Shown here one piece after another: positions 2,325 to 34,709 of a DNA stretch of 64,000 nt; the first letter of the stretch is position 1, and the number at the start of each line of letters is the position of its first letter. The stretch is from NCBI GenBank assembly GCA_013289585.1, contig JABCZR010000005.1, positions 46,117 to 110,116 of the forward strand, given 5' to 3'. This DNA is from Acidobacteriota bacterium. GTDB lineage: Bacteria; Acidobacteriota; Terriglobia; Acidiferrales; UBA7541. The position numbers and the translations under genes were made by a program. The notes beneath the pieces were generated by a model. The model had not been told where the DNA came from and did not search any database. It worked only from the letters and a program-made list of their open reading frames with translations.

Positions 2325-3575
2325 ATGAACACGCTAAAACGGTTGCGGAATCTCTGGATACCGTGGGTTGCGACGATTGTTCTGGGTTGCTTCAGCGATG
2401 CGGTCGCGCAAGTCAGGTACCACGTTGAAGATTTGGGTACTCTGGAGGATGGGTTTTTCGGCTGTACGATGGGCGTCAACAATCACGGGTGGACGGAGAC
2501 TCAGTACGGGTTGTTAGAGGCAGGGAAGCTTCTAAAAGGACGGGTCGCGATAAACTTCGACGGATTCACCTTCCCCATCCCCACTCTCGGAGGACCGAAT
2601 AATTGGGACAACCCCTTTGGCGGCGAGATAAACGATCGAGGGGAGGCGGTAGGTTTTTCCGAAACGGATGTCCTGGACCCGAACGGCGAAGACGTTTGCG
2701 GCTTCGGCACACACCTTACGTGCAGTGCGTTTCTTTGGCGAAAGGGCCACTTGAGCGCTCTCCCGACGCTCGGCGGAAATAACGGGCAGGCCACCGCCAT
2801 CAATAACCGCGGACAAATCACAGGGTTTGCGGAAAACGGTACCGTAGACTCCTCATGCTCCGCTAACGCAACTAATACACGGATTCAGCTGCCGGTGATA
2901 TGGGAAGATGGCAAAGCCCGAGCTCTTCGTACAGTGGGTAAAGATCCAGACGGGGTAGCAAACGCTATCAACGATCACGGTCAAGCCGTAGGCTCCTCGG
3001 GAAACTGCGCCGGAGGGCTGCACGCCGTACTGTGGGATAAAAACGGCACTGCTCGTGACCTCGGTGCGGGCGCCGCCGCTTTCGGGATTAACAACCAGGG
3101 CCAAATTGTTGGGTTAGCCCCCAGCGTTGACGGCTCAACCTTCTCTGCTGCTCTTTGGCAGGACGGCGCAATCAAAGACCTCGGCACTGCCGGAGATCAT
3201 GCCGCCATAGCCAGCGGCATCAACAACAAGGGCCAAGTGGTAGGAAGCACCCTGGACTCCACCTTCAACTGGGTCCATGCCTTCATCTACGAGGAAGGCA
3301 AGATGATCGACCTTAATACGCTGTTTCCTGCAGAATCCAACCTCTTCCCCACCATGGCTAACCAGATCAACGACCGCGGACAAATCGTGGGAATGGCGAC
3401 GGTTCTCAGCGGGCCGCATGAGGGCGAGACCCACGCCTTTCTGGCAACCCCTGTGGAGGAGAGAGAAGGCAGGTCGGTTGCAGACGTGGCACCTGGACAC
3501 CCAAAATCCAATTTACCCGCAAATGCTGGCAAACAGCTTTTGCAGAGACTCGGGCGGGGCCGATTCGACCAATAA
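2325..3575 (+). CDS. Secreted HAF-repeat protein
   Basis: Signal peptide; repeated DLGTL/LPTLGG...A.AINN.GQ(I/V)(T/V)G units; HAFIY and HAFLA motifs. Confidence 0.85.
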   Translation: MNTLKRLRNLWIPWVATIVLGCFSDAVAQVRYHVEDLGTLEDGFFGCTMGVNNHGWTETQYGLLEAGKLLKGRVAINFDGFTFPIPTLGGPNNWDNPFGGEINDRGEAVGFSETDVLDPNGEDVCGFGTHLTCSAFLWRKGHLSALPTLGGNNGQATAINNRGQITGFAENGTVDSSCSANATNTRIQLPVIWEDGKARALRTVGKDPDGVANAINDHGQAVGSSGNCAGGLHAVLWDKNGTARDLGAGAAAFGINNQGQIVGLAPSVDGSTFSAALWQDGAIKDLGTAGDHAAIASGINNKGQVVGSTLDSTFNWVHAFIYEEGKMIDLNTLFPAESNLFPTMANQINDRGQIVGMATVLSGPHEGETHAFLATPVEEREGRSVADVAPGHPKSNLPANAGKQLLQRLGRGRFDQ

Positions 3576-9325: not shown

Positions 9326-10888
9326 TTACATGCCTCCCGTGGCGTTCACGCTGAGTTGCTTGGTTGCGATCGGCTGGCCATTCTTTTTTGCGAGGATGGT
9401 GACTTGCCAGGTTCCGCCGTTTTCCAGCAGGCCCGAACCTTCATACAGACCGTTGCCTTTGTCGCTGAGAGTAACGGGCACGCGCATCGACGCCATGCCC
9501 ATCGCGGGCATCGCCGGCATGGAAAACGTCACGCTGACTTCCGCACCGGAGATAGGCGCTCCACCCGCATCTGTGAGTTTCACGCGGAAGACATTGCTTC
9601 CTTTCCGCGGTGTGCTCGGGTCAGAACTCAATTCGACATTTCCTTGCGGAGAACTTGAAGCGGAAGCCGCGCTTGCACCTGGTGGAGGTGGAACGAATGA
9701 ACCGAGTGCAGCCTGAAGCTGGCTTTCGGAATCGATCAGGAAGTTTGCGGAGGTGATAATTTGCTCACCCACCTTCAATCCCTTCAGCACGATAAAATCA
9801 TCACCCACGCGGGTGCCTAACTGCACTTCGCGCGGCTCGATGTAACCGTCGCTACGCTCGACAAAAGCAATCTCGCGAGTGCCAGACTGCAGGACACCGC
9901 TTGCGGGGATGACTAGCTGGTTTCCCATCGAGACCTTCAGACTTACGTTGACGAACATGCCGGGTTTGAGTTGCAACCCAGGATTCGAAAAGACAACGCG
10001 CACTTTGGCCGTTCGCGTATCCATATCCACTTGCGGATAGATAAAGTCCACGCGGCCCGTGAACGTCCGGCCGGCATAGGTATTCACCGTGAGCATTGCG
10101 GGAGCGCCGATCTTGATACGTTCGAGATCGTTCTGGAAGACCTGCGCCTGAACCCAAACGGTCGAAAGGTCCGCAATGGTGTAGAGGCGCATTTCCGGTT
10201 GAACGGCAACGCTGGGCAGAGCATTGCGTTCGGTGATGTACCCAGAGGCCGGCGAATCGACTTCCAGTTCCTGCTGCGCTTGGCCGGTGGATTCGAGCCG
10301 GTCGATTTCTTTTTGTGGAACACCCCACTGTTTGAGACGCTCTGCAGTCGCGTCGAGCAGCGATGTTGCACTGAACGCAACACCTTGCACGGTACTCTGT
10401 GCCACTTGCCGCTGATTCTGCCTGGCCACCAAATATTCCCGTTCGGTGGCCACTAGCTCCGGGCTGTAAACTGTGAAGAGCGGCTGCCCTTTTCTGACGT
10501 ATTGGTACGTGGCATCGGCAAACACCTTTTGGATATAGCCGGAAAACCGCACTTGGACATAGGCCAGCCGCCTTTCATCCACAGCGACACTGCCGGTAGT
10601 GCGAATCTCGTCTGTGACCAATTTCCGTTCGACTTTGCCAGTCTTCACACCGATGCTCTGCAACCGTTGTGGAGAGATCTGCACTGGAACGAGCGACGCC
10701 TCGGTCGCCGCAGGGGGCGCAGCCATCGAGGTGGCCATAGAATCCTGCGCGGTGGAATTCGGCGACTTGGTTTCCAGGTTCGCCGTCGTCTTCGATGCGC
10801 GATAGTGCAGCCACAATCCGACGAGCACGACCGCGAGCACGATGTTTCCAATCAATGCCAGCAAAAATCTTGTGCGATACGCTTTCAT
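9326..10888 (-). CDS. cusB: CusB-like periplasmic adaptor with an extra C-terminal Met-rich beta-domain
   Basis: RFSGYIQKV, KGQPLFTVYSPELVATEREYL, LKPGMFVNV and SANFLIDSESQL, followed by about 110 extra residues containing FSMPAMPAMGM and GTWQVTI. Confidence 0.85.
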   Translation of the reverse strand: MKAYRTRFLLALIGNIVLAVVLVGLWLHYRASKTTANLETKSPNSTAQDSMATSMAAPPAATEASLVPVQISPQRLQSIGVKTGKVERKLVTDEIRTTGSVAVDERRLAYVQVRFSGYIQKVFADATYQYVRKGQPLFTVYSPELVATEREYLVARQNQRQVAQSTVQGVAFSATSLLDATAERLKQWGVPQKEIDRLESTGQAQQELEVDSPASGYITERNALPSVAVQPEMRLYTIADLSTVWVQAQVFQNDLERIKIGAPAMLTVNTYAGRTFTGRVDFIYPQVDMDTRTAKVRVVFSNPGLQLKPGMFVNVSLKVSMGNQLVIPASGVLQSGTREIAFVERSDGYIEPREVQLGTRVGDDFIVLKGLKVGEQIITSANFLIDSESQLQAALGSFVPPPPGASAASASSSPQGNVELSSDPSTPRKGSNVFRVKLTDAGGAPISGAEVSVTFSMPAMPAMGMASMRVPVTLSDKGNGLYEGSGLLENGGTWQVTILAKKNGQPIATKQLSVNATGGM

Positions 10889-18929: not shown

Positions 18930-19892
18930 ATGTTGATCCGCAAAGCCCCAGATTTGACCTACGCCGACGTGACGCCCAGGTGCGTGTACCTGGACCGGCG
19001 GAAGTTCCTCCAGGCCATGGGGATTGCCGGCGCCGCGGCAGTCGCGGGGAAAGGTTTGTTCGAACTGGCGTTGCCTTCGGATATCGCATTCGCCGCGACG
19101 AAATTGACCAGTTTGGTGAAAAGCCCCTACAGCACCACCGAAAAGCAGAACTCTTTTGAAGATGTGACCCACTACAACAACTTCTACGAATTCGGCACGG
19201 ACAAGAGCGACCCCGCTAAGAACTCGCAAAATTTCAAGACTTCACCGTGGACCGTCTCCGTGGAGGGCGAAGTCGCAAGACCACGCAAGTTCACCATGGA
19301 CGAAATCCTCAAGGTCGCGCCGCTCGAAGAACGCATCTACCGTCACCGCTGCGTCGAAGCCTGGTCCATCGTCGTGCCGTGGATTGGATTTTCGTTCAGC
19401 AACATCATCAACCTTGTGGAACCCGGGCCGAAAGCCAAGTTTGTCGCGTTCGAAAGCTACTTCGACCCCCGGCAAATGCCCCAGGCGAAATACGCAGGCA
19501 TCGATTTTCCGTACGTTGAAGGCCTGCGCCTCGATGAAGCCATGAATCCCCTCGCGCTTCTCTGCGTCGGCATGTACGGCGAGACGCTTGCCAACCAGGA
19601 TGGCGCTCCCGTACGCATGATCCTCCCGTGGAAATACGGTTTCAAGAGCGTCAAGTCCATCGTGAAAATCCGCTTCCAGGAGAAAATGCCGCCGACTACC
19701 TGGAATCGCCTCGCTCCCAATGAGTACGGCTTTTACTCCAATGTGAATCCCAATGTCGACCACCCGCGCTGGACGCAGTCGAAGGAACGCCGCCTGGGCG
19801 AAATCTTCAAGCGCCCCACGCTCATGTTTAACGGTTATGGCGATCAGGTTGCCAGCTTGTATACCGGCATGGACCTGAAGAAAAATTACTGA
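18930..19892 (+). CDS. msrP: Protein-methionine-sulfoxide reductase catalytic subunit MsrP
   Basis: Tat motif DRRKFL; THYNNFYEFGTDK, YRHRCVEAWS, PWKYGFKSVKSI and NEYGFYSNVNP. Confidence 0.95.
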   Translation: MLIRKAPDLTYADVTPRCVYLDRRKFLQAMGIAGAAAVAGKGLFELALPSDIAFAATKLTSLVKSPYSTTEKQNSFEDVTHYNNFYEFGTDKSDPAKNSQNFKTSPWTVSVEGEVARPRKFTMDEILKVAPLEERIYRHRCVEAWSIVVPWIGFSFSNIINLVEPGPKAKFVAFESYFDPRQMPQAKYAGIDFPYVEGLRLDEAMNPLALLCVGMYGETLANQDGAPVRMILPWKYGFKSVKSIVKIRFQEKMPPTTWNRLAPNEYGFYSNVNPNVDHPRWTQSKERRLGEIFKRPTLMFNGYGDQVASLYTGMDLKKNY

Positions 19893-19905: not shown

Positions 19906-20550
19906 GTGCGAAGAATCCTCACCGGCAAATGGACCAAAGTCCTCGTATTTCTGCTTTGCCTCGTCCCGTTTTTCGAATTGCTCGATCGCGCCCTGCACAA
20001 CCGGCTGGGCGCCAATCCTGTCGAATTCCTCCAGCACGCCACGGGCGACTGGATTCTACGCTTTCTTATTTTCACGCTGGCCATCACCCCGCTCCGCAAA
20101 CTATTCAAGCAGCCCGATCTCATCCGTTTCCGGCGCATGCTCGGTCTCTTTGCCTTTTTTTACGCGTGCCTGCATTTCCTCACTTACATCGGCCCCGATC
20201 AATCTTTCGACTTTTCCGCCATGCTGAAGGATGTCGCCAAGCGCCGCTATATCGCCGTTGGCTTCACGGCTTTCGTCTTGCTCATCCCGCTGGCGATTAC
20301 TTCCACGACGGGATGGATTCGCCGCCTCGGCGGAAAGCGCTGGCAGATACTTCATCGCGCCATTTATGTCTCCGCTGTGCTCGGCGTCATACATTATTAT
20401 TGGCTGGTAAAATCCGACGTCCGCAAGCCACTATTCTACGGCGCGCTCGTCGCTATTCTTCTGTTGTGGAGATTGGGAAGCTGGATTTCGAAGCGCAGGA
20501 GCCAGGCGCCTGTCCGGGCCGCAGCGCCGCCCGTTTCAGTGAGTGGCTGA
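19906..20550 (+). CDS. msrQ: Heme-binding membrane subunit MsrQ
   Basis: GANPVEFLQHATGDW, RRMLGLFAFFYACLH, WQILHRAIY and HYYWLVK; follows msrP. Confidence 0.93.
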   Translation: MRRILTGKWTKVLVFLLCLVPFFELLDRALHNRLGANPVEFLQHATGDWILRFLIFTLAITPLRKLFKQPDLIRFRRMLGLFAFFYACLHFLTYIGPDQSFDFSAMLKDVAKRRYIAVGFTAFVLLIPLAITSTTGWIRRLGGKRWQILHRAIYVSAVLGVIHYYWLVKSDVRKPLFYGALVAILLLWRLGSWISKRRSQAPVRAAAPPVSVSG

Positions 20551-20889
20551 AGAGTTTTCCGCCGGCGAATCGTTGAATTCCAGGCCCCAGAAATGCGGCG
20601 CAGGCGTAAGAAATTCCACTCCCACGCGCTGACCTTTGTCCACCGGTTCACCCAGGTAGACCACGCGGCATTCTTGTTCTTCCAGCGTCAATGGGTTAGT
20701 AATCACCAGCATTTCGCCCGCGTCAATCTCGTGCTGCAGGAATAGCAAGCCACCATGGCCGTTGACCACCACGGTTTCGCAAGTCTCGCGGAACTTTTTG
20801 CCGTTGTGCGCGCGGCCTTGCGCCAGAATGCGCATTTTGTGGAAGACGCGAGAGCTCCGCCGGGGAGAGGCTGCAGTGATTTCGCTCAT
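20536..20889 (-). CDS. PilZ domain protein
   Basis: RRSSR motif followed by TVVVNGHGG, and GVEF near the C-terminus. ATG chosen at 20889. Confidence 0.75.
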   Translation of the reverse strand: MSEITAASPRRSSRVFHKMRILAQGRAHNGKKFRETCETVVVNGHGGLLFLQHEIDAGEMLVITNPLTLEEQECRVVYLGEPVDKGQRVGVEFLTPAPHFWGLEFNDSPAENSSATH

Positions 20890-20918: not shown

Positions 20919-20959
20919 CGTCAATCTGTCCCTCCGTACAGGTGTTCCCCATCCGCAAC
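20919..20959. repeat. Repeat B (41 bp), exact copy at 24827-24867
   Basis: CGTCAATCTGTCCCTCCGTACAGGTGTTCCCCATCCGCAAC in both places. Confidence 0.92.
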
Positions 20960-21199
20960 TTCGCCCTCTGAACCCGCGAAAGAATCAACTGACCCTCGTG
21001 TGCCCGCTCGGCGGCCATGCCCTGGGCAAGCCCGCTACTGCCCAATGAGCGTTTCGTACGCGATGGCGAGAAGTTTCAGGCAGCAATAGATTTGCCGGTG
21101 GCCAAAGACACCGGACCGCCGCTCCGCATCTTCATCGCTGATAGGTCGTGAAGAATATCTATTGAAGTGTAATAATCGCTAACGGTAGGCCCAGAGGCT

Positions 21200-23014
21200 A
21201 TGGCTTGGTTCGCTAGTCGTTCACCCGTGTGTGCGCTCCCGCAGCCGATTTTTTGGCTCCGCGCCCTTGCCTCGGCAATCCTGCTCCTGTGGCTTATGCC
21301 CACCAGCTTTGCGATTGCACAGTCGAATCAGCAGTCTGCTACTCCAGAGAAGGGTCCATCTTCGGTTCGCGGCACAGTCCTGAATCGTCTTACACACGAA
21401 CCGATCGCCCGCGCCCTCGTGTATTCCCAGGACCAGCAATACGCCACGATGACGGACAGCATTGGCCACTTCGAGTTTAAGTTCTTGCCTCGAAAGCCCG
21501 AACCCGCACAGAATCTGAAGGCCGCGACCAATGCTGGTGCGATTGGCCCTCAGAATATTCCCTCCTCGCCATATTTTCTGCCGACAGAATTCCTGGCGCG
21601 CAAACCAGGTTTTCTGCAAGACCCGGGCACTCCCTACGATGCCCGCACCGGTTCTGATTCGCCGGCACTTACCATCTACCTGGATCCAGAATCTTTGATC
21701 ATCGGTCATGTCAGCATCCCGGGCTTGGAAGGCTACCTCCGTTTCGATTTGCAGCTTTACCGCCGCGATATCAGTGGCGGGCGGGAACATTGGAATTCAG
21801 TGCGCGCGGTTACCACTTGGACCGACGGCGAGTTTCGTTTCTTCGATCTTGCGGCTGGCACCTACAAGCTCGTGACCGAAGAGCAACTCGATCGGGATCC
21901 GCTGACCGCAATTCCCGGCGGACAGCTCTTTGGTTACCCGCCTGTTTTTTTCCCCGGAGTTTCGGATTTCGCGGCAGCCGGCGCGATTCAGCTTGCCGCA
22001 GGCGCAACGTTTCAGGCCAATGTCTCTCCAGCTCGCCGCCAGTATTACCCCGTCAAGATTCCAGTTGCGAATCCGGCTTTGGGTCAATTGACTAACATCC
22101 GCGTCTATCCGCTTGGGCATCCCGGCCCCGGCTATTCTCTTGGATATGATTCCGCGGAGCAGCTGATTCAGGGCAGTCTTCCAGACGGTAGTTACACGCT
22201 GCAGGCGGAGACCCAGGGCCAGCCGGGTTCAGCGGGAATTCTGAATTTCTCAGTGCGCGGCGCGCCGCTGGATGGACCCGCCTTTAACCTGATTCCGAAC
22301 GCCTCGTTGCTCGTGAACGTGAGGGAAGAATTCGAATCCGCGCAGAGCGTTTTTGTGGAAGGAACGAGCGAAACTTCGCCCGGTTCGTCGAACATTGAAG
22401 CGATCCGGCAGGTAAACCTTCAGGTCATACTCACGCCGATCGAGGAATTTGGTTTGTCGCGTGCCCGTTCATCGGAGCCGATACAGGGCACTCGGGACCA
22501 TGCGGTGATCATCCAAAATGTTTCTCCGGGCCGTTACCGCGTGGAGATAAACTCTGGCGTCGGTTACGCTGCCAGCGCCCTCTCCGGTGGGACGGACGTT
22601 TTGCATGAACCACTGATAGTCGGAATGGGCGGCGCGGCTTCCGCGCTTCAGGTCACTTTGCGCGATGATGGAGCCTCTGTGGATGGCACCGTCGAGAACG
22701 AACCAAGTGAAGACCCACGGCCACCGCAAAGCCATGGCTCCCGGCCTTCGTGTTATATCTATTTTTTGCCTGTCGCAGGGAGCAGTGCGCAATTTCGCCA
22801 ATCGAATAGCAATTCCGAGGGAACATTTTCACACTGGCAGTTGCCGCCGGGTTCCTATCTTGTTCTCGCTTTTGATCGCGCTCAGAACGATCTTGAATAC
22901 TCCAACACGGAAACGGTGCACAAGCTTGAGTCCAAGGGACAAGTTATCCATGTCGAACCCGGCGACAAAGTGCATCTGCATTTAACCGTAGTTCCCGGGA
23001 GCAATCCGCGATGA
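21200..23014 (+). CDS. Secreted carboxypeptidase-regulatory-like domain protein
   Basis: Signal peptide; SSVRGTVLN, TDSIGHFEF, GEFRFFDLAAGTY, YPPVFFPG and PPGSYLVLAF. Confidence 0.8.
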   Translation: MAWFASRSPVCALPQPIFWLRALASAILLLWLMPTSFAIAQSNQQSATPEKGPSSVRGTVLNRLTHEPIARALVYSQDQQYATMTDSIGHFEFKFLPRKPEPAQNLKAATNAGAIGPQNIPSSPYFLPTEFLARKPGFLQDPGTPYDARTGSDSPALTIYLDPESLIIGHVSIPGLEGYLRFDLQLYRRDISGGREHWNSVRAVTTWTDGEFRFFDLAAGTYKLVTEEQLDRDPLTAIPGGQLFGYPPVFFPGVSDFAAAGAIQLAAGATFQANVSPARRQYYPVKIPVANPALGQLTNIRVYPLGHPGPGYSLGYDSAEQLIQGSLPDGSYTLQAETQGQPGSAGILNFSVRGAPLDGPAFNLIPNASLLVNVREEFESAQSVFVEGTSETSPGSSNIEAIRQVNLQVILTPIEEFGLSRARSSEPIQGTRDHAVIIQNVSPGRYRVEINSGVGYAASALSGGTDVLHEPLIVGMGGAASALQVTLRDDGASVDGTVENEPSEDPRPPQSHGSRPSCYIYFLPVAGSSAQFRQSNSNSEGTFSHWQLPPGSYLVLAFDRAQNDLEYSNTETVHKLESKGQVIHVEPGDKVHLHLTVVPGSNPR

Positions 23015-24672
23015 TTTTCATTCCGCACATTTTCCGCCTGATCTTCTTCATGTGTGGTCTCGCGTTTCTGCATCCCGGCATCGGGCTTGCTACGCAGAAT
23101 CGGAATCCTGAGACGCGAACAGATTCCCAACCCGGGCAATCGTTCAAGATCGCGGGAACGGTCGTGAATGCCAATACTGGCACGCCTCTCGCGCAGGCCC
23201 GTATCTCCATAGCACGCGCCAAGGATCCCGGAAAGTTTACTTCGATCGTCACCTCCGAAGACGGCCACTTCGAGTTTTCGCAACTAGCGGCTGGAAAATA
23301 TACCTTGCAGGGGGCGAAACGCGGTTTCATTTCCGCTGCCTACGAACAACATGAACAATTCTCCACGGCAATCGTTACCGGACCGGACTTCTCGACCGAA
23401 AATCTGCTGCTTCGTTTGACACCAATGGCAATAATCACGGGCCACGTGTTTGATGAATTTGGCGATCCGGTCCGTAACGCGAACATTTATCTATTCCAGG
23501 AACGGCATACAGGGGGAGGCAGCCGTATCGTCCGTATGGCTTTCTCCATAAGTGATGATCGGGGTTTTTACGATATCGCTCTTTTGCGGCCCGGCAACTA
23601 TTATCTTTCCGTCGCCACTAAACCTTGGTACGCGGTTCATTCGGTCACTGCTCTAGATCCCGCACTTGATGTGGCTTACCCCGTTACTTTTTACGATGGC
23701 GCGACCGAAGCGGACCGTGCCACTCGCATCGAATTGAACGGCGGTGATCGTCTCCAAATTGACATACATCTCAATCCGGTACCCGCATTACACATCTTTT
23801 TTCGAATCCCTGAGAATGGCCCCGACCCGCAGAATCAATTCACCGTGCCGACCTTGCAAAAGTCCGTCTTCGACTCTCCGGAGTTAGTACAGCCGGAAGG
23901 CACCCGCCAGGTGGCGCCGGGCTTGTATGAGTTGTTTGGTATTCCACCGGGGCGCTACACCACCAGAATAAAAAACTCGGGCTCAGGCCAACTCGAGCAA
24001 TCCACAGACCTCGACATTACCCGCGACGGGCAGGATCTGAACGATACTCGCGGCGAGCCGCTTGGCTCTCTGAAGTTGTCCTTCAGATTGCCAGGTGATG
24101 AAACGCTTCCAAAGCAATATACCGTCGGCCTGCAGGATTCCGGGCGGCGGTTCGTGGGCTTCCGGCGAGGAGATTCCTCTGGGCAGGTCGCATTCGAAGA
24201 TCTGGCCCCGGGAAAGTATGCGATTCTCATCCTCTCCGCGACGAAACAACTTTCCGTTGTGCGAACCACTTCACCGTCAAGCGACTCCCCTGGTCATGAC
24301 GTAACCATTACGCCTGGAACCGCGCTTGAACTTACAGCTTCTCTGGCCGTGGGCATTGTCAATATTGAGGGAATAGTGAAAAAGAAGGATAGACCACTCG
24401 CCGGCATCATGGTTGCTCTGGTGCCGAAAAATCCGGAAGCACATATTGAATTGTTTCGCAGGGATCAAAGCGACTTTGATGGGACCTTCCTCTTGCAGGG
24501 AGTGATTCCCGGGTCCTACACGATCGTCGCCGTGGAAGATGCCTGGGGGTTTGAGTGGTTACAACCCGGCGCCCTCGCCCGATATGTCCAACACGGACAG
24601 AATCTGATCGTAGGTAATCTGATGCTTGGAACTGTGCACCTCCCCGATCCGGTCGAAGTACAGCCGCATTGA
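23011..24672 (+). CDS. Second secreted carboxypeptidase-regulatory-like domain protein
   Basis: FKIAGTVVNA, SEDGHFEF, GHVFDEFGDPV, YPVTFYDG and RDQSDFDGTF. ATGA overlap with the upstream paralog. Confidence 0.8.
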   Translation: MIFIPHIFRLIFFMCGLAFLHPGIGLATQNRNPETRTDSQPGQSFKIAGTVVNANTGTPLAQARISIARAKDPGKFTSIVTSEDGHFEFSQLAAGKYTLQGAKRGFISAAYEQHEQFSTAIVTGPDFSTENLLLRLTPMAIITGHVFDEFGDPVRNANIYLFQERHTGGGSRIVRMAFSISDDRGFYDIALLRPGNYYLSVATKPWYAVHSVTALDPALDVAYPVTFYDGATEADRATRIELNGGDRLQIDIHLNPVPALHIFFRIPENGPDPQNQFTVPTLQKSVFDSPELVQPEGTRQVAPGLYELFGIPPGRYTTRIKNSGSGQLEQSTDLDITRDGQDLNDTRGEPLGSLKLSFRLPGDETLPKQYTVGLQDSGRRFVGFRRGDSSGQVAFEDLAPGKYAILILSATKQLSVVRTTSPSSDSPGHDVTITPGTALELTASLAVGIVNIEGIVKKKDRPLAGIMVALVPKNPEAHIELFRRDQSDFDGTFLLQGVIPGSYTIVAVEDAWGFEWLQPGALARYVQHGQNLIVGNLMLGTVHLPDPVEVQPH

Positions 24673-24778
24673 ACCCAACTCGTTGCGCTGCTGGCCGCGT
24701 CCTCGAATCGGGGCCGCAGGTCCTGTGGCTTCGTTTGCCCTGTCTGTCATCGCCAAACTGAAGAACATTCGACGCCCC

Positions 24779-24867
24779 GTGCGCTTGTACTTGACGATGG
24801 GCCAGTCATAGAATAATGACTAGCGGCGTCAATCTGTCCCTCCGTACAGGTGTTCCCCATCCGCAAC
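24779..24867. repeat. A|B junction: repeat A (24779-24828) fused to repeat B (24827-24867) with a shared CG
   Basis: The first 50 bp match 33192-33241 at 48/50; the last 41 bp match 20919-20959 exactly. Confidence 0.9.
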
Positions 24868-24915
24868 CTTGCGGTTGACCGCGACGGCGGCGTGTACCTG
24901 AAGCTGATACCGCTC

Positions 24916-25512
24916 CTAAACTTGTTCATCGAGAATTTGGATGTAGGTTTTGCCGTAGGGATAGAAGAGTTCCTTGCGGCCTTCCTGCCACGCCGCTTTG
25001 AGTTCGGGCGTGGTGATGTCCCAGTCCGGCCGGCATTTCTTCGTAACGGCACGCAGGTCCTGGCGGAGATCTTCCAGAGTGGGACGGCCGAAGAACCAAT
25101 AGCCGTTGTAAATCTTATAAATGACAAGGCCGGGCTCGAGGACAATCACATGAGGGATCATGGGATTGTGGAGTGGATCGGTGTATTCGGCGATGTCGAG
25201 ATCTTTTTGGACCGTACGCCCCGCGTCGGAGAGAAAAGGCTAGTGGGCGCCAACTCCGCTGCGATATTCATTTGTCTCGGTGATATTGTCGGTGCTGATG
25301 GTGACAAGCCGACAATAGGCAACCTCGAGTTCACGATGGAGTTGAACAAGCAGCTCAGCCTGGCGGCGGTCCTTCGGGCAAAAACCTCCGCGGCTGAGGA
25401 CGAGAACCATAGGATGTTGTCCTTGCAATTCGGAGAGTTTGCGGCGCTTCGCGATGTGGTCGGAAAGCTCATAGTCGGGGAAGATAGCCCCTGGAACCAG
25501 GTCAGATCGCAT
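24916..25512 (-). pseudogene. Redoxin/peroxiredoxin-like gene interrupted by an in-frame TAG
   Basis: FPDYELSD and SRGGFCPKD. The frame reads GVGAH-TAG-PFLSDAGRTVQKDLDIAEYTDPLHNPMIPH and continues to 24916. Confidence 0.8.
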
Positions 25513-25694
25513 AGGAAACCCTCCATTCGTCGGTTCTGCGTCGCTAGTTTACGCTCAATAGTCAGTGGCCTGGCGTTCTCGTAGTGACCTCGCGTATGTG
25601 CCAGGCCAGCCGCTGTGTCCGAACCCCGATACTTTGGCGCAGTAAGGTGATGGGGGTCGGAAAGTTATTCAGTGGGTTGCGATGTTGGTCCCCT

Positions 25695-26729
25695 TCACAT
25701 CGTCAGAACGACGCGAAACTGGGCGTTTCCGCTCATCATGCGCGCGTAAGCCTCGGCAGCTTTTTCGAGCGGATAGGTTTCAATCATCGGGCGCACGCCG
25801 GTTAGTTCGGCGAAACGCAGCGTGTCCTCGGCATCCGCTGGTGTTCCCGTGGCCCACCCTTGAATCGTTCGGCGGCCATTGATTAATTGTGCCGGAGTGA
25901 CCGCGAGGGGCTCCATGTCCGCGCCCACGACAATGAGCTCGCCGTTCGGCCCCAGGCCGTCAAACACCTCGGACATCGCTTTGGAGCTTGGAGCTGTCGC
26001 CAGGATGACCTTTGCGCCGCCCAGTTTTTGCAATTCCTGGGCTGCGTTCGTCGCTTTGTTATCGATGTACATGCTCGCGCCGAGTTTTTTTGCAAGCGCA
26101 GCGCTTTCCGACCCGCGCCCGACGGCCGCGACCTTATAACCAAACTTGTTCGCGAATTGAATTCCCAGGTGACCCAGACCGCCGATACCCAGCACGGCAA
26201 CGAGGTCGCCGGGCATCGTACCGCTGTGCCGCAGCGCGTTGTATGTCGTGATTCCGGCGCAGAGCAGTGGCGCGGCGTCGACGTCGCTTAGACTTTCCGG
26301 TATCGCCGTCAGCGCCTCCATGGGAGCTACCATGTATTGCTGGTATCCGCCGTCATAGCTGATGCCCGCTATTTTCATATTCTGGCAATTGCCAAAATCC
26401 CCGCGCCGGCACTGGAGACACGTATTGTCGTGTCCGCCGTGCCAGCCAACTCCCGCGCGCTGTCCCTGTTTCCATCCGGACACACCGGCGCCCAGCTCAT
26501 CGATAATGCCAGCGACTTCGTGTCCCGGCACGCGTGGGTATTGGATGCCCGGCCACAGGCCTTCTTTAGTGAACATGTCGCTGTGGCAGACGCCACAGGC
26601 CTGCACCTTGATGCGCACTTCTCCCGCACCCGGCTTGGGAATCTCGCGCTCGACAATCTCGAAATCGGCTCCCGGTTTAGGAATCTGCGCCGCCTTCATT
26701 GGTGCTATCGCGACTTTCGAAGTTGCCAT
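25695..26729 (-). CDS. Zinc-dependent alcohol dehydrogenase
   Basis: CGVCHSD, GHE, CLQCRRGDFGNC, APLLCAGITTY and GIGGLGH. Confidence 0.93.
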   Translation of the reverse strand: MATSKVAIAPMKAAQIPKPGADFEIVEREIPKPGAGEVRIKVQACGVCHSDMFTKEGLWPGIQYPRVPGHEVAGIIDELGAGVSGWKQGQRAGVGWHGGHDNTCLQCRRGDFGNCQNMKIAGISYDGGYQQYMVAPMEALTAIPESLSDVDAAPLLCAGITTYNALRHSGTMPGDLVAVLGIGGLGHLGIQFANKFGYKVAAVGRGSESAALAKKLGASMYIDNKATNAAQELQKLGGAKVILATAPSSKAMSEVFDGLGPNGELIVVGADMEPLAVTPAQLINGRRTIQGWATGTPADAEDTLRFAELTGVRPMIETYPLEKAAEAYARMMSGNAQFRVVLTM

Positions 26730-27283
26730 AAACCCTCCCTTGAAATTTCAATTGCTGTTGAAAAAGCGCTAACTGCTAGTACCTGTTTACCTCAGGTGGC
26801 ATTCCGCGAAAATGTAGTCTTTTGCCGTTACGATCGTGTGGTTCTCGCCTAACTTCGAGCGTCTTCGGCTGCTGGAGCGCAGAGACAGATGTGGGCTGGC
26901 GGCATCGGTGACGATAGGAAATCGATTCACGCGATTTCTCGTCCACATCGATTCCACCTCTGAGTTCAGAAAGTGATTTGCTGGAAGGCCAAGGTGGGGA
27001 GCCAAGGACTTACTGCACTCTCCCTTAGCAACTGCCAATTTTACTTAGGTAATCCTTCCTGTCAAGAGTAGGCCTCTGAGCACTCCATTGCCGTAAGGTC
27101 GCAGTAGTTGTTCTGTTCCCATTATTGGCTCGGCAGCCATCTTCATCTGGTTTTACCGATCGGGGAAACAATGGCATCGCACAATGGGCCGATTCGGTAA
27201 GATATGCAAGCTCCAGCCTGATGGACGCGGGAATATCCGCGATCTTGTCATTTTGTTTTGCCGAGTCTGTGAGGAACGCCTGT

Positions 27284-29641
27284 ATGTTTTCGCTCCGAAT
27301 CTGTCGGCTCGTTCTCTTGCTTTCTGCACTGCTGTACACGCCGGTGTCCGCCCAAAGGAAGCCGCTCTTCACTTCGCCGCTGCCGACTGGTGTGAGTCTC
27401 GATCCCGCCGGCGAAGCGGTTGACCTCGGTAGCTTGCCGATCAATCTCGTACTCACGCCTGAAAAGGACGGAGCCGTGGTCGTGCTCAGCGGCTGGCGCG
27501 AGCAGGGCGTTCAGGTCGTCGATCTGAAGACGCGGAAAGTCACGCAGAAGCTGCTCCAGGATGGCGCATTCTACGGCGCCGCCTTCTCGCCCGATGGCCA
27601 TCACCTCTGTGTCTCCGGCGGCAACACGGACACAATCTTCGTCTACACATGGAAAGACGGCGCCGCCACTCTCGAGAACAAGTTCGAACTGGCGAAAACA
27701 AAAACGGCGGATGCCACCGGCACAAGCTATCCGGCGGGACTGGCGTTTTCGTCCAACGGAAAATTCCTTTATGTCGCCGAGGACGTCGGCGATCGGCTCG
27801 CAGTGGTGAACGCTGCGACCGGCGAGATCAAGCAACGGTTTTCTACAGACCATTATCCCTATGGCGTCGTGCTCACGGCGGAAGGTCAAGTGTTCGTTTC
27901 GGCTTGGGGCGGCAGCACGCTGTCGCAGTTCCGCGTTTTGGCAGACGGAACGCTCGCCTATCTCGGACGGATCGAGGTCGGTCCGCATCCGTCGGCGCTG
28001 GCGGTCAGTGGAACGAGTATGTACGTCACGCTCGCGGGTAGCGACCGTGTGGCCGTCGTCGACACGAAGCAGCGGAAGGTCGCGCGCTATCTGCACGATG
28101 CCGCGCCTGGTGCCCCGCCCGAGGGCAGCACACCCAACGCCGTCGCACTTACCTCCGATGGCAAGCGTCTGCTGATAGCAGAAGCCGACAACAACGCCGT
28201 CGCAGTCTTCGATGTGACTACCGGCAAGTTGCTCGGGCGCGTTCCGACCGACTGGTATCCCACTGCGATCGCCGAAGTAGGTGGCCAACTCCTCGCCCTC
28301 TCCGGGAAAGGACACGGCACCCAGGCCAACCCCGACGGCCCCGTACCGCTCACGAACTGGCCGAACGAGAAACCGACAGCATACGCACTCGGACAGTTGA
28401 ATGGCACACTGCGCGTGCTCTCCGCTTCACTCCCGCCGCCGCTACTGGCTAGCTTCACCGAGCGCGTCGTCGCCGCTAATAACTGGCAGCATAAGCCCGC
28501 GGCGCGGCGTTATCCGCCGTTCCGCCACGTCGTCTACATCATCAAAGAGAATCGCACCTATGATCAGGTACTCGGAGACATGAAAGAAGGCGACGGTGAC
28601 GCGAGCCTCGTCTATTTCCCCGACATCACCATCACCCCAAATCACCACGCGCTCGCGCGGCGCTTCGGCCTGTTCGATCGTTTTTTCGTGAATGCCGAGG
28701 TCAGTTCGCAAGGACACATCTGGTCCACCGCCGCTTACGTCACGAACTACGGTGAGAAGATGGTGCCCTCCGGTTACGCAGGCAAGCGGGCCGACATGGA
28801 TGGCGAAGAGAGCGACGAGCCGGAACGCGGCTTCCTCTGGACACTCGCAATCCGAGAGGGCATCACTTTCCGCGACTACGGCGAAATGGTCAAGGGGAAT
28901 CCCGGCTGGCCGGTGACGCAACGCGGCTTGGGCGCCGACGTGAATCCTGACTACGTCCCGATGGATTTCGTTACGCAGGATCAAAAGCGCGCTGATGTTT
29001 GGATCGCCGAACTCCAGCGCTACGTTCACGACGGCAACATGCCACAGCTCGAAATCATGTGGCTGCCGATGGACCACCTTGCCGCCGGGCGTCCGGGCAA
29101 ATGCGCGCCGCGCGCGTGCATGGCCGACAACGACCTCGCACTTGGGCGGATCGTGCAGGCGCTCTCGCATAGCCCGTATTGGAAGGACACGGTGATCTTC
29201 GTCGTTGAAGACGACGCGCAGGCGGGGCCCGACCACACCGATTCTCACCGCGCGCCGTTCTATGCCATCTCGGCCTACAACCGGTCGGGCACGGTGCATC
29301 GCTTCATCAACACGACGGACGTGATCGCGGCGATCGAGGACATCCTCGGCATGGGTCGGCTCTCCAAGTTCGATTACTTCAGCCGATCCCTGGTGGACAT
29401 CTTCGCACCGGCGCCCGACCTGACGCCTTACGATCCAATCATTCCCACGCAAGACTTGAATGAAAAAAATCCGCAGAATACTGCAGCCGCACGCTTGTCG
29501 GAGAGTCTGGATCTCAGCGCTCCCGATCGCGTGGACGATCAGCTCTATAACCGCATTCTGTGGCTGATGTTGAAGGGTGATGTTCCGCCACCGGTTGCAC
29601 AGAGCCGCGCGGCTCTGCATGCACTGCAATCGAGCAAATGA
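27284..29641 (+). CDS. Secreted YVTN/YncE beta-propeller fused to a phosphoesterase/alkaline-phosphatase-like domain
   Basis: Propeller repeats (GPHPS, GSTPNAVAL, TDWYPT); HVVYIIKENRTYDQVLGD, EDDAQAGPDH. ATG at 27284 precedes a signal peptide. Confidence 0.85.
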   Translation: MFSLRICRLVLLLSALLYTPVSAQRKPLFTSPLPTGVSLDPAGEAVDLGSLPINLVLTPEKDGAVVVLSGWREQGVQVVDLKTRKVTQKLLQDGAFYGAAFSPDGHHLCVSGGNTDTIFVYTWKDGAATLENKFELAKTKTADATGTSYPAGLAFSSNGKFLYVAEDVGDRLAVVNAATGEIKQRFSTDHYPYGVVLTAEGQVFVSAWGGSTLSQFRVLADGTLAYLGRIEVGPHPSALAVSGTSMYVTLAGSDRVAVVDTKQRKVARYLHDAAPGAPPEGSTPNAVALTSDGKRLLIAEADNNAVAVFDVTTGKLLGRVPTDWYPTAIAEVGGQLLALSGKGHGTQANPDGPVPLTNWPNEKPTAYALGQLNGTLRVLSASLPPPLLASFTERVVAANNWQHKPAARRYPPFRHVVYIIKENRTYDQVLGDMKEGDGDASLVYFPDITITPNHHALARRFGLFDRFFVNAEVSSQGHIWSTAAYVTNYGEKMVPSGYAGKRADMDGEESDEPERGFLWTLAIREGITFRDYGEMVKGNPGWPVTQRGLGADVNPDYVPMDFVTQDQKRADVWIAELQRYVHDGNMPQLEIMWLPMDHLAAGRPGKCAPRACMADNDLALGRIVQALSHSPYWKDTVIFVVEDDAQAGPDHTDSHRAPFYAISAYNRSGTVHRFINTTDVIAAIEDILGMGRLSKFDYFSRSLVDIFAPAPDLTPYDPIIPTQDLNEKNPQNTAAARLSESLDLSAPDRVDDQLYNRILWLMLKGDVPPPVAQSRAALHALQSSK

Positions 29642-29809
29642 TGATGAACCCGCGCATCTTATGGGCAAATATTCACTCGATAAGCCAGGTTGGAGAGAAC
29701 GCGTTGCTCGGCGGCCAGAGAACACTGCCCCGGTTCCTCTCTCCGATTAATATCGGGAAACGCGCCAGCTGTGACCAACCATTTGCCTTGACATGTAATT
29801 CGGCTCTGC

Positions 29810-29824
29810 CATAGTCTGACTATG
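29810..29824. promoter_or_regulatory. Perfect 7-1-7 palindrome over the -10 of the padR promoter (probable PadR operator)
   Basis: CATAGTC-T-GACTATG; TTGACA at 29788-29793 and TAGTCT at 29812-29817. Confidence 0.6.
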
Positions 29825-29838
29825 TCAGAGGTGATGCC

Positions 29839-30168
29839 TTGCATCGAAACGAAATTCCTCCGGGAACGCTCTATCTGCTGATTTTGAGAACGTTGGCGCG
29901 CTCCGGCGAAATGCATGGGTATGAGATTGCCAATTCCATTCAGCGGATATCGGATGACGTTCTGCAAGTCGAAGAAGGCTCGTTGTACCCCGCGTTGCAG
30001 CGGATGCTCATCAAGGGATGGGTGACCGCGGAGTGGGGCACGACGGCTGGCAACCGCCGCGCTCGTTACTACAAGCTGACTGCAGCAGGCCGCAAACAAT
30101 TGACCGTCGAGATGTCGCAGTTCGAACGCGTCATTGGCGCGATCACGCGTGTGATCGAGGCTGTCTGA
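29839..30168 (+). CDS. PadR family regulator (acidobacterial type)
   Basis: [26 protein letters not shown] and [10 protein letters not shown]. Confidence 0.9.
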
Positions 30169-30181
30169 AAGGAACTCCTTT

Positions 30182-32806
30182 ATGGACTGGCTGCGCGAAT
30201 TGGCAAGACGCCTCAGCATGCTGATGCATCGCCGACAATTTGATGCCGACCTCGAAGAGGAAGTGCGCCTGCATTTGGAATTGCGGCAAGAGGAACAGTT
30301 CGAGTCCGGCATGACTGCAAACGAGGCTCGGGCCGCTGCTCGGCGCCGGTTTGGCAACGCAACGTACCTGAAGGAAGAAAGCCGCATCGCGTGGGGCTGG
30401 GAATGGTTCGAGAACTTGGCGCAGGATGTTCGTTACGGCGCGCGCATGTTGCGCAAGTCCCCAGGCTTCACGGCTGTCACCATCCTCACACTCGCTCTCG
30501 GCATCGGCGCAAACACCGCGATATTCAGTGTGATCAATGGAGTGTTGCTCACTCCGCTTCCCTACAAGGATCCGAAGCAACTCGTCGTCATCAAGGAACA
30601 CGATTCGCTCCCGAACGTGATGGATATCCAGAGACAGACGCGCGCATTCTCACAGGGCGGCGGAATCAACGTCGAGAAGATGGACTACATAGGCGCAACC
30701 GAACCTGTGCAAGTCCGTGTCGGGCTCATCGATGCGGGGTTTCTCGAAACGCTAGGCGTGCAGCCGATGCTGGGTCGGATCATTTCACCCGGGGAAGATG
30801 TGCAAGGCGGGCCGCGTTTCGCCATGGTCAGCAATCATTTCTGGCAAGACTACCTTGGCAGCGATCCATATGCGGTGGGCAACACGATTCAGCTGGGCGG
30901 AAACTCTTATACGGTGATCGGCGTAATGCCCGCGAGTTTTGCTCTGCCAGCGGAGCATGCCGACGTTTTCGTTTCACTCATGGTCCGCGACCCGGGGGCG
31001 GGTGCGGAGCGCGATCTGCACTTCATGCATACCTACTGGCGATTGAAAGCGGGCGTCACGCTCGCACAGGCGCAGGCCGATATGGCCGCGATCGACCGCC
31101 GGCTCGCGGAGCAGTATCCGGCCGAAGAAAAAGAACGGAAGAGCCAATTAGTTCCGCTGCAGGAATGGCTCGTAGGAGACGTGCGGTCGGCATTGCTGGT
31201 GCTCTTCGGAGCTGTAGGCCTCGTGCTGCTGATTGCGTGCGCGAATTTCGCGAGCTTGCTGATGGTGCGCGCGTTTGCGGGGCACCAGGAATTGGTGATC
31301 CGGGCGGCGCTGGGCGCGGGACGCGGCCGGCTGATCCGGAAAACGCTGACTGAGAGCGTACTGTTGTCGGTCCTCGGCGGTGCGACCGGCTTGCTGTTGG
31401 CGCAGTTGGGTACGAGCGTGCTCCTGGCCATGAGGCCGGAGAATCTGGCGCGGCTGAGCGGGATTCACATGGATGCACGAGTGCTGCTGTTCGCCCTCGT
31501 GGTCTCGTTGCTGACCGGCATCGCCTTCGGAATGGCGCCGGTATGGATCTCGGCTGGCCCGGACGTTGCCCAAGCCCTGAAAGAGAGCGGGCGGAGCACA
31601 ACGGCGAGCACGATGGGGCATACCGTGCGGCAAGTTCTGGTCACATCCGAGCTGGCCCTTGCTTTGGTGCTGCTCGTCGGTGCCGGCTTGTTGATCAAAG
31701 GCTTCTCACGCCTGCGCTCGGTCAACCCCGGTTTCAATTCTTCGGGCGTAATAACGATGTATCTCCAATTGCCTGAGACGCGGTACGGAGAAATCCCTAA
31801 ACAAACCCAGTTCCGCCGCGAGTTGCTCACGCGCTTGGATACTGTGCCGGGCGTGCAAGTGGCGATGGTGAGTGACATACCCCTCGGCGGCAATTATGTA
31901 GGCCACCGTTTGGTCATCGACGGACGCCCGCCGGTCGCGGTGGGAGGTGAGCCGCTAGTGCAAACCCTTTCCGTGATGGGCGATTACTTCCACGTGATGC
32001 AGATTCCGCTGCGCGCAGGTCGCAAGTTCACCCCGTTGGACCGCGAAGGGCAGCCACTCGTCGCCATTGTGAACGAAGAAATCGTGCGGGAATTCTTCCC
32101 GCATAAAGACCCAATCGGCGTGCGCATCTGCTGGGCGGGCGACGTAGGACCGCCGCGATGGATGACCGTCATCGGCGTGATGGCCGACGTGAAACACTCA
32201 GGATTGAATCAACCGACGGATCCCGCTGTGTATACCCCTTTTTCGCAGAACGACGAGCGCTGGAGACGATTTATGACGCTCGCCATCCGGGCTCGGGATG
32301 CGTCTCCTGGGCTCGTTGCAGAAGTGAAGAAGCAGATCTGGAGCTTGGACGCGCAGATTCCGGTGGACGACGTGCGCCCTATGGACGAGCTCATAGCGGT
32401 GTCGGTTGCCCAGCAACGTTTCAACATGTTGCTCCTCGGACTGTTCGCGGCGCTCGCGTTGATCTTGGCTGCGGTGGGAATTTACGGCGCGATGGCTTAT
32501 GCCGCGAACCAGCGAACGCATGAGATCGGCATACGGACAGCGCTGGGGGCGCAGCGACGCGACGTGCTGCGCCTCGTTATGAGAGATGGAGCGAAAATCG
32601 CGCTCTTCGGCATCGCCTCCGGGATTGCAGGAGCGCTGGCGCTGACTCGCCTGATGGCCAGTCTGCTTTTCGAGGTGAAACCGACGGACCCCGCGACATT
32701 CGCGGGTGTCGCAATCCTGCTCGCTTTCGTTGTACTCGCGGCTTGCTACCTCCCGGCGCGCCGCGCAATGCGCGTGGATCCTATGGTCGCCTTGAGATAC
32801 GAGTAG
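30182..32806 (+). CDS. Duplicated orphan ABC permease (ADOP, two MacB/FtsX halves)
   Basis: [62 protein letters not shown] and [10 protein letters not shown]. Confidence 0.92.
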
Positions 32807-33191
32807 TCCTTCGCGCAAGTGACCGCCAACCCTTCCTTAGAACAAGCTCGCATAAACGTGTAGGACTTCTGAAGCCCTCAGCCGCACGCATGTACACGCA
32901 CAGTCCGCAAGTTTTATTTGTGGACATTACTGCCGACTGTTCCCGAGTGACGAGCAAACCGGAAGTAATGCCTCCGGGTTGGCACATTGCTCCCGATAAA
33001 CGCGCTTGTATTGATTAATCGGGGCAAATTGCCTGCTGGCCGGCCACTCGGGAACTAAGCCGGTGCCTTGCAGCTACAGCGTGGAATTCCATCACGCGGC
33101 CGGGCGGATAAGTCTTCCAAGTCTGAGCCGTGGATCCCACCTTTCCCCTTCTTCTGAGGCCGACCCTTTCATCATGCAACAACCGTGCGGG

Positions 33192-33241
33192 GTGCGCTTG
33201 TACTGGACGATGAGCCAGTCATAGAATAATGACTAGCGGCG
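33192..33241. repeat. Repeat A (50 bp); contains a sigma70-like promoter and a 9-6-9 imperfect palindrome
   Basis: 48/50 identical to 24779-24828; TTGTAC-N18-TAGAAT; GCCAGTCAT-AGAATA-ATGACTAGC. Confidence 0.88.
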
Positions 33242-33344
33242 GCAGGTCATCCATCGTGGGGCCCTTCTTTCCGCGGCCGCAAACTTTCGTACACGTTTTG
33301 CGTATTCCTATTCGAAAGGACTTTTTCGTCCCCAAAGGGCCCTT

Positions 33345-34709
33345 ATGAATCTTGCTGAGCTTATCGAAAGTCGCCGCGACCAACATCTGGCGGAGCTGTG
33401 CGAGTTTCTGCGCATTCCCAGTGTCAGCGCCAAGAGCGAACACAAACCGGATATCGAGCGCGGTGCACGCTGGGTGGCTGACAACATCCGCGCTGCGGGG
33501 TTTAAGACGGTTGAAATCGTTCCCACGAACCTGCACCCGCTGGTGTACGCGGAATCTCTCGAAGCCCCCGGTAAACCGACGATTCTTTTTTACGGGCACT
33601 ATGACGTGCAGCCCGCCGAGCCGCTCGAATTGTGGACTTCTCCGGCCTTCGAACCCACCGTACGCGACGGAAATCTTTTTGGCCGCGGCACCGCAGACGA
33701 CAAAGGCCAGGTTCACATCCATTTGAAGGCGCTCGAATCCCTCCAAAAAGTGAACGGCAAACTTCCCATCAACGTTAAGATTTTGATCGAAGGGGAGGAA
33801 GAAGTCGGCAGCGTCAGCCTCTGGGACTACGTCCAGAAAAACAAGGAAAAACTCAAAGCCGATGCCTTGGTGGTTTCCGATACTTCCATGCTCGGCAAGG
33901 GCGTGCCCTCCATCACTTATGGATTGCGCGGTCTGAACTATTATCAGATTGAGCTGACCGGTCCGGCGCGCGATCTGCACTCCGGTGTTTACGGGGGCGC
34001 GGTGCCGAATCCGCTTACGATTCTGACGGAGCTCTTCGCCAAACTTCACGACAAGCATTTTCGCGTCAACGTGCCCGGTTTTTATGATCAGGTGGCGAAC
34101 GTTTCGAAAGCCGAGCGCAAATCGCTGAACGCGCTGCCCTGGAGGAAAAAAGATTTTGAAAAGGCCGTGGGCGCGCCAGGATACTTTGGAGAAAAGGGTT
34201 TTACCATTGTCGAGCGGCTATGGACGCGGCCAACGCTCGAATTGAACGGTATCTGGGGCGGCTACCAGGGCGAAGGGGCGAAGACCGTCATCCCTGCGAA
34301 AGCCTATGCGAAATTTTCGACGCGCCTTGTTCCCAATCAAGACCCGCACAAGATCGCCAGGCTCGTCGAAAAACACGTTCGAAAGCTGCTGCCGAAAACA
34401 GTTCACTGCAAATTTGATGTTTTGAGCATGGGCAAACCGTGGGTGGCTCCGTTCCACGCGCCGATTTTTCTGAAAGCCCAATCCGCGCTCGAAAAAGGCT
34501 TCGGCAAAAAAGCTTCGTTCATTCGCGAGGGTGGCTCCATTCCTTTTGTCACCCAGATGCATGACACTTTCAAAGTGCCGTGCGTGTTGATCGGTTTCGG
34601 TCTGCCCGACGAAAACGCGCACGCTCCCGATGAGCATATCGCGCTGGAAAATTACTTCGGCGGCATCAAGGCCATCGCGCACTTCTACGCCGATCTGGCC
34701 AGTCTCTGA
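33345..34709 (+). CDS. M20/M25/M40 family dipeptidase
   Basis: YGHYDVQP, GRGTADDKGQ, EGEEEVGS, DLHSG, REGGSIP and HAPDE. Confidence 0.92.
   Translation: MNLAELIESRRDQHLAELCEFLRIPSVSAKSEHKPDIERGARWVADNIRAAGFKTVEIVPTNLHPLVYAESLEAPGKPTILFYGHYDVQPAEPLELWTSPAFEPTVRDGNLFGRGTADDKGQVHIHLKALESLQKVNGKLPINVKILIEGEEEVGSVSLWDYVQKNKEKLKADALVVSDTSMLGKGVPSITYGLRGLNYYQIELTGPARDLHSGVYGGAVPNPLTILTELFAKLHDKHFRVNVPGFYDQVANVSKAERKSLNALPWRKKDFEKAVGAPGYFGEKGFTIVERLWTRPTLELNGIWGGYQGEGAKTVIPAKAYAKFSTRLVPNQDPHKIARLVEKHVRKLLPKTVHCKFDVLSMGKPWVAPFHAPIFLKAQSALEKGFGKKASFIREGGSIPFVTQMHDTFKVPCVLIGFGLPDENAHAPDEHIALENYFGGIKAIAHFYADLASL

Follow-up and report, generated by a model that had tools for sequence, protein, structure and literature searches.

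Hot spots that lie between persistent core genes and contain no genes of mobile genetic elements (MGEs) have been described in bacterial genomes, with housekeeping recombination as the presumed route by which their accessory genes are exchanged (Oliveira et al. 2017, PMC5635113). Type VI secretion system (T6SS) effector-immunity arrays and orphan modules of Rhs and contact-dependent inhibition (CDI) loci have been described as displacement arrays built by homology-facilitated illegitimate recombination (HFIR) (PMC5361080 and references there). Here, we analyzed a locus within a 64,000-nucleotide stretch of an Acidobacteriota genome (assembly GCA_013289585.1, contig JABCZR010000005.1, positions 46,117 to 110,116; hereafter the window), in which two unrelated gene blocks stand head to tail between a small PilZ-like gene and an M20 dipeptidase gene. 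Each block starts with a short repeat, B, and ends with another, A, giving the overall layout B-b1-A|B-b2-A, where b1 and b2 are blocks 1 and 2. The arrangement is a well-resolved variant of known genome plasticity, not a new cassette system.

With the MGE-free hot spots, this locus shares a fixed interval between two core genes, diverse content with high turnover among close relatives, and the lack of an integrase, transposase or tRNA. It differs in that the insertion point is narrowed to the ~20-nt spacer of two putative divergent promoters and in that one lineage keeps the A|B junction as a scar. With the HFIR arrays, it shares alternative modules stacked in tandem, each of which retains part of the conserved flank, and the lack of a dedicated recombinase. 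The joint in those arrays is ascribed to two crossovers, one homologous and the other illegitimate, and the joint here, with its 2-bp CG microhomology, also has the form of an illegitimate one. Those arrays retain a coding 5' piece and push the old module downstream, whereas both promoter regions here meet at an intergenic joint. The cargo here also consists of ordinary metabolic and regulatory genes, apparently added in a single event rather than serially, and the stacked modules, unlike those of the HFIR arrays, were not found as sole occupants in other strains.

Classical tandem duplication and Campbell-type single-crossover integration likewise produce head-to-tail units, a novel microhomology joint and duplicated unit ends, but the unit interiors here are unrelated, so that doubling of a single resident segment cannot account for the locus. 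Integrons and integrase-mediated island accretion (attL-attI-attR) resemble it in stacking content at one chromosomal site with boundary repeats; here, however, there is no integrase, attC/attI or tRNA target, and A and B are the sole repeats. Integrase islands repeat one att core at every joint, whereas the internal joint in the window is a composite of both flanks. Transposons and miniature inverted-repeat transposable elements (MITEs) differ in having terminal inverted repeats, a short target-site duplication and a transposase; here, neither terminal inverted repeats nor a transposase was found, and the repeats are direct and 41-50 nt long.

Structure and authenticity of the joint

A repeat search of the window placed repeat B at 20919-20964 and 24827-24872 (41 nt exact, 44/46 overall) and repeat A at 24779-24831 and 33192-33244 (48/50 as far as the joint, 50/53 overall). 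By direct reading of the sequence, the end of A (...GACTAGCGGCG) and the start of B (CGTCAATC...) have only the bases CG at 24827-24828 in common, and this 2-bp microhomology is the A|B joint. The likeness within each pair breaks off sharply at all four edges, and no residual similarity was detected beyond them, local alignments of the adjoining 80 nt being no better than shuffles. Comparison of the two block interiors found no sequence common to both, and the repeat pairs of the window include no terminal inverted repeats bounding the blocks, the 41-50 nt repeats being direct. Neither an Rfam match nor an unusual fold or other structured element was found at the joint. The repeats, their CG-only overlap and the unrelated interiors are therefore as the initial annotation of this DNA had described them. 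It had also proposed a genome-wide search for A and B; across the whole 4.73-Mb, 32-contig assembly, each is present in two copies with nothing else above noise, which rules out the idea of dispersed repeats.

The resident copy of B (B1, 20919..20964) lies 30-76 nt before the ATG of the PilZ-like gene, and the resident copy of A (A2, 33192..33241, + strand) lies ~100 nt upstream of the M20 ATG, in agreement with the earlier assignment of B and A to the regions upstream of these two genes. The internal copy of A (A1, 24779..24828, + strand) reproduces the putative M20 promoter region, with a -35 element TTGTAC, an 18-nt spacer and a -10 element TAGAAT plus 11 nt, and points into the internal copy of B (B2, 24827..24872), which lacks the 30-nt link between B1 and the PilZ-like ATG. 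A1 and A2 differ at 2/50 positions, and at both of these A2 has the state of the nearest relatives, G072 and G060, so that A1 is the bearer of the derived changes. This pattern is consistent with A1 being a released copy that is decaying.

Phylogenetic footprinting identifies A as the predicted promoter footprint of the M20 gene. In a cross-species alignment of the genus relatives, the only invariant blocks of A were CTTGT(A/G)C and TAGAAT, separated by a variable spacer of 17-18 nt. A simple sigma-70 scanner called neither A nor B, and A was missed because its score is 8/12. The B core ...CTG(G/T)CCC..G(G/T)ACAGGTGTTCCCCA..GCAAC is kept across the genus, and conservation stops at GCAAC plus ~5 nt; by its position and conservation, B is presumably the promoter or operator of the PilZ-like gene. 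We infer that the internal A1 and B2 would act as face-to-face convergent decoy promoters. At the right end of B (20950-20964 and 24858-24872), the motif CCGCAAC(N)TT(C)G resembles positions 33268-33289 in the conserved M20 5' leader, where its counterpart, GGCCGCAA(A/C)(C/A)TTCG, is seen in the window and in relatives. The motif may represent an operator shared by the two divergent genes, the likeness alone being not significant (P ~0.09).

Using exact-protein look-ups for genes on both sides of the joint, we retrieved assembly contigs in which the 94-nt A|B sequence was base-identical at 16 loci from 13 independent JGI/ENA assemblies, with flanks diverging from the window by 0-0.45% (99.55-100% identity). 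Two Logan unitig contigs from other runs also covered the joint, reading 29 nt across it. The window belongs to a metagenome-assembled genome (MAG), in which false haplotype duplications can look alike, and an assembler might have concatenated two strain alleles. However, the same joint was recovered by different pipelines from different samples and from strains 0.45% diverged, as well as in the Logan unitigs, and the repeats, 41 and 50 nt long and with mismatches, do not resemble a k-mer overlap. The probability of an assembly artefact is accordingly close to nil, and we regard it as effectively ruled out. No B-B or A-A deletion products were present among the contigs found through the look-ups, and no such variants appeared in two JGI metagenome-contig scans, which return exact matches only and may miss records near this genome; with respect to deletion or single-block variants, these look-ups and scans provide weak negatives. 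The identical joint in independent assemblies, together with the lack of deletion variants, indicates that the structure is fixed in the natural population.

The promoter spacer as an insertion hot spot

We surveyed the slot between the PilZ-like and M20 genes in 61 genomes of the genus, of which 52 were informative for its state, and in more distant relatives (M20 identity 75-80%). M20 orthologues with 80-92% identity were present in 55/61 genus genomes, a PilZ-like orthologue adjoined the slot in 53/61, and the two genes bounded the interval in at least 50 genus genomes and in more distant Acidoferrales. The slot was empty in ~31 of the 52 informative genomes and in all of the more distant relatives, the two genes being divergent neighbors 175-410 bp apart with A beginning within ~20 nt after B; the empty sites of the genus span 225-410 bp. 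This distribution identifies the unfilled site, in which B adjoins A, as the ancestral state. In ~21 genus genomes, the slot was filled, with 1.1-9.7 kb between B and A, and the slot of the window (12.3 kb) is the largest. Relatives thus carry single B-x-A units with many different contents x, or none, which bears out the earlier proposal of a variable slot between two divergent genes.

At least 12 non-homologous slot contents were distinguished, and these are common to relatives in mosaic fashion, each set being flanked by an intact B and an intact A. They include a BNR/sortilin-like protein, qNOR, DUF488, a CarboxypepD_reg outer-membrane barrel, a Ser/Thr kinase, an M48 peptidase, a hybrid histidine kinase, Crp regulators and PadR-FtsX pairs. 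One module (X) occurs in G003, G056, G058, G008, G012, G050 and L022, another (Y) in G012 and L021, and the kinase module in G008 and G012. No mobility domain was found in the slots of relatives by Pfam searches of the large open reading frames (ORFs) and of part of the small ones.

In every case, homology between species ended at GCAAC (plus at most 7 nt) on the B side and, toward A, restarted immediately ahead of the -35 hexamer, and the inner edges of A1 and B2 in the window lie within a few nucleotides of these ends of promoter conservation, as in every other filled slot. Because only insertions into the spacer spare both promoters, this shared insertion point needs no site-specific enzyme. 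Together, these comparisons show that the ~20-nt spacer between the two predicted back-to-back promoters behaves as an MGE-free hot spot of horizontal gene transfer (HGT) in this Acidoferrales genus.

Two relatives carry other repeats in the slot region. In G066 (locus L147), a hairpin-bearing element of ~55 nt, GAGCATCCGA(T)CAAGGATGCGA..CCTGAGCGA...GAGTCGAAGG, which resembles repetitive extragenic palindromic (REP) or MITE sequences, is found at 437-488, right at the B edge, and again at 3317-3369, 2.9 kb inside (oriented coordinates). This element could mark one route of DNA entry into the slot. In L024, another Acidoferrales MAG, a 75-nt direct repeat with 84% identity lies upstream of the M20 gene at 4742-4816 and 9666-9740, and one copy is ~110 nt ahead of promoter A. 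Both were considered as A|B joints and rejected, the former being a REP/MITE-like hairpin element and the latter a repeat internal to the insert.

Uniqueness of the joint among relatives

The initial annotation had anticipated further A|B joints at the same CG in relatives, and had proposed that the content of the slot is excised as a circle joined A-to-B and re-enters related chromosomes, stacking alternative alleles in tandem. Motif and self-BLAST scans of the ~22 filled slots of relatives found no internal copy of A or B; the window alone has one. In G012, modules X and Y stand side by side, ~31 nt apart, without any A|B remnant, and accretion in the slot therefore usually proceeds via other joins.

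These results bear directly on a dedicated and recurrent accretion route, in which contents would leave as A-to-B circles and re-enter related chromosomes at the B and A promoters, possibly with the help of an unrecognized trans-acting recombinase. Such a route would account for the confinement of all insertions in the genus to the same ~20-nt spacer, for modules that change context without visible mobility genes, and for a layout that is the expected outcome of Campbell-type circle integration. Yet selection for intact promoters is sufficient to explain the common insertion point, the A|B joint is present in just 1 of ~22 filled slots, and multi-module slots such as that of G012 contain no remnant of it. 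Moreover, there are no other copies of A or B in the genome, no recombinase in or beside any slot, and neither a special fold nor an Rfam match at the joint. We therefore regard this route as very improbable. A version in which accretion needs no recombinase (or an unrecognized one) and relies on short promoter homologies, with the window as the only sampled case whose joint has not yet been erased, is likewise given little credence. A recurrent circle-based cassette route thus finds no support: the joint is unique, G012 stacks its modules without a remnant, no single-block allele was found, and no observation points to a circular intermediate. We infer that the join was a one-off event rather than the work of a dedicated accretion system.

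Provenance of the two blocks

The phosphoesterase gene of block 2 has an orthologue in G072 with 93% amino acid and 91% nucleotide identity (window 27125-29765 against 3557-6195 of L142, contig C29), which is a lone gene on another contig with other neighbors; in all remaining members of the genus, identity is only ~40%. The gene pair of block 1 (window 21213-24686) aligns with positions 1248-4721 of L163, on JGI contigs with unrelated context, at 86-88% nucleotide identity, the closest match having 89% amino acid identity. Orthologues of the genes flanking this JGI pair sit on two other contigs of the genome of the window. No ancestral locus can be defined for the blocks, because the genes that flank their closest relatives are not adjacent in the genome of the window.

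For the relocated modules of both blocks, we observed that homology ends ~15-125 nt from the coding sequences, with no mobility genes nearby. As block members recur in unrelated contexts, the blocks are best described as composites of gene-sized modules, and in these Acidobacteria such modules seem to change location with no mobility genes in evidence.

In another scheme, a slot with both blocks, B-b1-b2-A, would have been doubled, after which b2 would have been lost from the first copy and b1 from the second. A classical tandem duplication within one genome would yield the A|B joint, and the resulting redundancy would favor loss. However, block 1 directly adjoins block 2 in no relative, and the endpoints of the deletions would have had to coincide with the promoter edges of A1 and B2, which are non-functional, as well as with the boundary of b1 and b2, leaving no residual similarity. 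We consider whole-slot duplication highly improbable.

Formation of the tandem array

The explanation that we favor, to which we assign about an even chance, is that one illegitimate join of the tandem-duplication type, at a 2-bp microhomology, brought together in head-to-tail order two copies of the locus with different contents. In an ancestor of this species, two copies of the locus would have met, one with block 1 and the other with block 2. A point just to the right of promoter A in the block-1 copy would have been joined, at CG, to a point just to the left of B in the block-2 copy, while the other end of the incoming fragment would have been resolved by ordinary homologous recombination in the flank formed by A and the M20 gene, that is, by HFIR. 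End-joining is an alternative process for the same step, and it fits because the genome encodes Ku; both Ku and ComEC are encoded. An equivalent route would be a circularized B-block 2-A fragment inserted through one crossover within either A or B, which yields the same product and is indistinguishable from it by sequence. The product, B-b1-A|B-b2-A, would then have been fixed, and A1 would have started to decay.

Joining two existing alleles requires one event. It would also explain why the non-functional A1 and B2 match the edges of promoters, because each block would have sat in its own functional slot before the joining, whereas by target size the chance that two random insertions into a duplicated spacer give such edges is roughly 5%. 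Precedents are available in the HFIR-built arrays of displaced modules in T6SS and Rhs loci (PMC5361080) and in the MGE-free hot spots maintained via recombination in flanking core genes (PMC5635113).

Several observations weigh against a join between alleles. Neither flank gives a clear indication of donor origin: the MsrP-like gene on the left and the M20 gene on the right have the same nearest relatives, and the PilZ-like gene and the MFS gene, which may be too short or paralogous, rank differently. Only one such event was observed, and the mechanism is read from a single scar. The block-1 pair and the block-2 phosphoesterase have their closest relatives at other loci rather than in the slot. 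A single-block allele, with either b1 or b2 between B and A and bounded by the PilZ-like and M20 genes, was found neither in the genus genomes nor in the exact-protein look-ups and metagenome scans. Finally, a collection of 5.8 billion proteins contained no lineage between 92% M20 identity and the M20 cluster of the species itself, and the parental alleles are hypothetical because no lineage closer than 92% has been sampled. The earlier suggestion of stacked alleles is thus retained in part: we favor the addition in tandem of another copy of the slot with other contents, but the single-block allele that it implies was found nowhere.

The simpler alternative already raised by the initial annotation is that an empty B-spacer-A unit of ~105 bp was doubled at CG, either through slippage or through illegitimate recombination, and that the two spacers were later filled independently. 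Short tandem duplications based on microhomology are common, and the spacer is demonstrably a hot spot for insertion. Assembly in situ is plausible, as both blocks are mosaics of modules that are found elsewhere in relatives; the lack of a single-block allele and the difference of only 2-4% between the repeat copies are also in keeping with this scenario. It requires, however, at least three events instead of one. The segment s-A1-B2-s (~130 nt, s being the spacer) would have evolved neutrally, but neither insertion disrupted any of the 91 nt of A1|B2, and both landed at the same relative position beside the promoter edges. Furthermore, the BA|BA intermediate was seen in 0/25 empty or near-empty sites. 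The comparisons with relatives have therefore weakened spacer duplication, which we consider possible but rather unlikely, and the single join between two filled alleles is the account that we carry forward.

Genes in and around the slot

The left core flank, which is syntenic in relatives, consists of genes on the + strand for an MsrP-like molybdopterin oxidoreductase (18930-19892; Pfam Oxidored_molyb) and an MsrQ-like ferric-reductase-type membrane protein (19906-20550; Pfam Ferric_reduct). The left boundary gene of the slot (20536..20889, - strand) encodes a small, conserved protein of 117 aa. It had been named PilZ, and the name is kept here as PilZ-like on motif resemblance only, because no Pfam match was obtained at E<=0.01. 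On the right, the boundary is the core gene for the M20 dipeptidase (33345..34709, + strand; Pfam Peptidase_M20 and M20_dimer), beyond which lie HU, cytochrome c, TPR and MFS genes. A tRNA scan detected no tRNA in or near the interval (none within 25 kb, the sole tRNA of the window being at 59113), and Pfam searches of the ORFs in the interval detected neither a recombinase nor a transposase domain, nor is there an integrase ORF in or beside the slot. The initial statement that the interval lacks a tRNA, integrase or transposase is borne out by these scans.

Block 1 (20965..24778, + strand) contains two co-directional CarboxypepD_reg-like genes (21200-23014 and 23011-24672), assigned, like the genes of block 2, by Pfam. 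Block 2 (24873..33191) is a mosaic comprising an AhpC/TSA redoxin pseudogene (24916-25512, - strand), a Zn-dependent alcohol dehydrogenase (Zn-ADH; 25695-26729, - strand) and, on the + strand, a beta-propeller/phosphoesterase gene (27125 or 27284 to 29641), PadR (29839-30168) and a MacB/FtsX permease (30182-32806).

The redoxin gene, which lies next to the joint, had been listed without qualification; it is indeed an AhpC/TSA gene, but it carries an in-frame TAG at 25240-25242, the only one in the gene, within ...GVGAH*PFLSD.... Gene calls in other assemblies split it in the same way, into products of 90 aa and 81 aa, so that the TAG is not a sequencing error and the gene is a real pseudogene or a candidate for readthrough. 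Its C-terminal part has an 80%-identical paralogue on contig C1 (~23.9 kb). For the phosphoesterase, a TTG start at 27125 (838 aa) is possible, while callers in other assemblies choose 27284 (785 aa); the G072 orthologue aligns across both candidate starts.

Elsewhere in the window, at ~13.3-13.9 kb (L121 vs L122, 1-3400), two strains of the same species, ERZ27253555 and ERZ27253736, differ to the left of a Ser/Thr kinase gene, where an RND efflux operon is found versus an ABC transporter plus a histidine kinase. This constitutes a second strain-variable boundary.

Implications for the growth of hot spots

Many bacterial HGT hot spots carry no mobile-element genes, and the entry of genes into them is largely inferred. 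The locus described here is an unusually well-resolved natural example from an uncultured soil lineage, as it combines dozens of empty or differently filled relatives with a scar resolved to the base pair. This scar records the addition of a whole second block together with copies of both promoter edges. In addition, the comparison shows that gene-sized modules change locus in these genomes with no mobility genes apparent. Collectively, these observations provide a concrete and testable model of how a hot spot may grow without mobile elements, namely through end-joining or HFIR between alleles.

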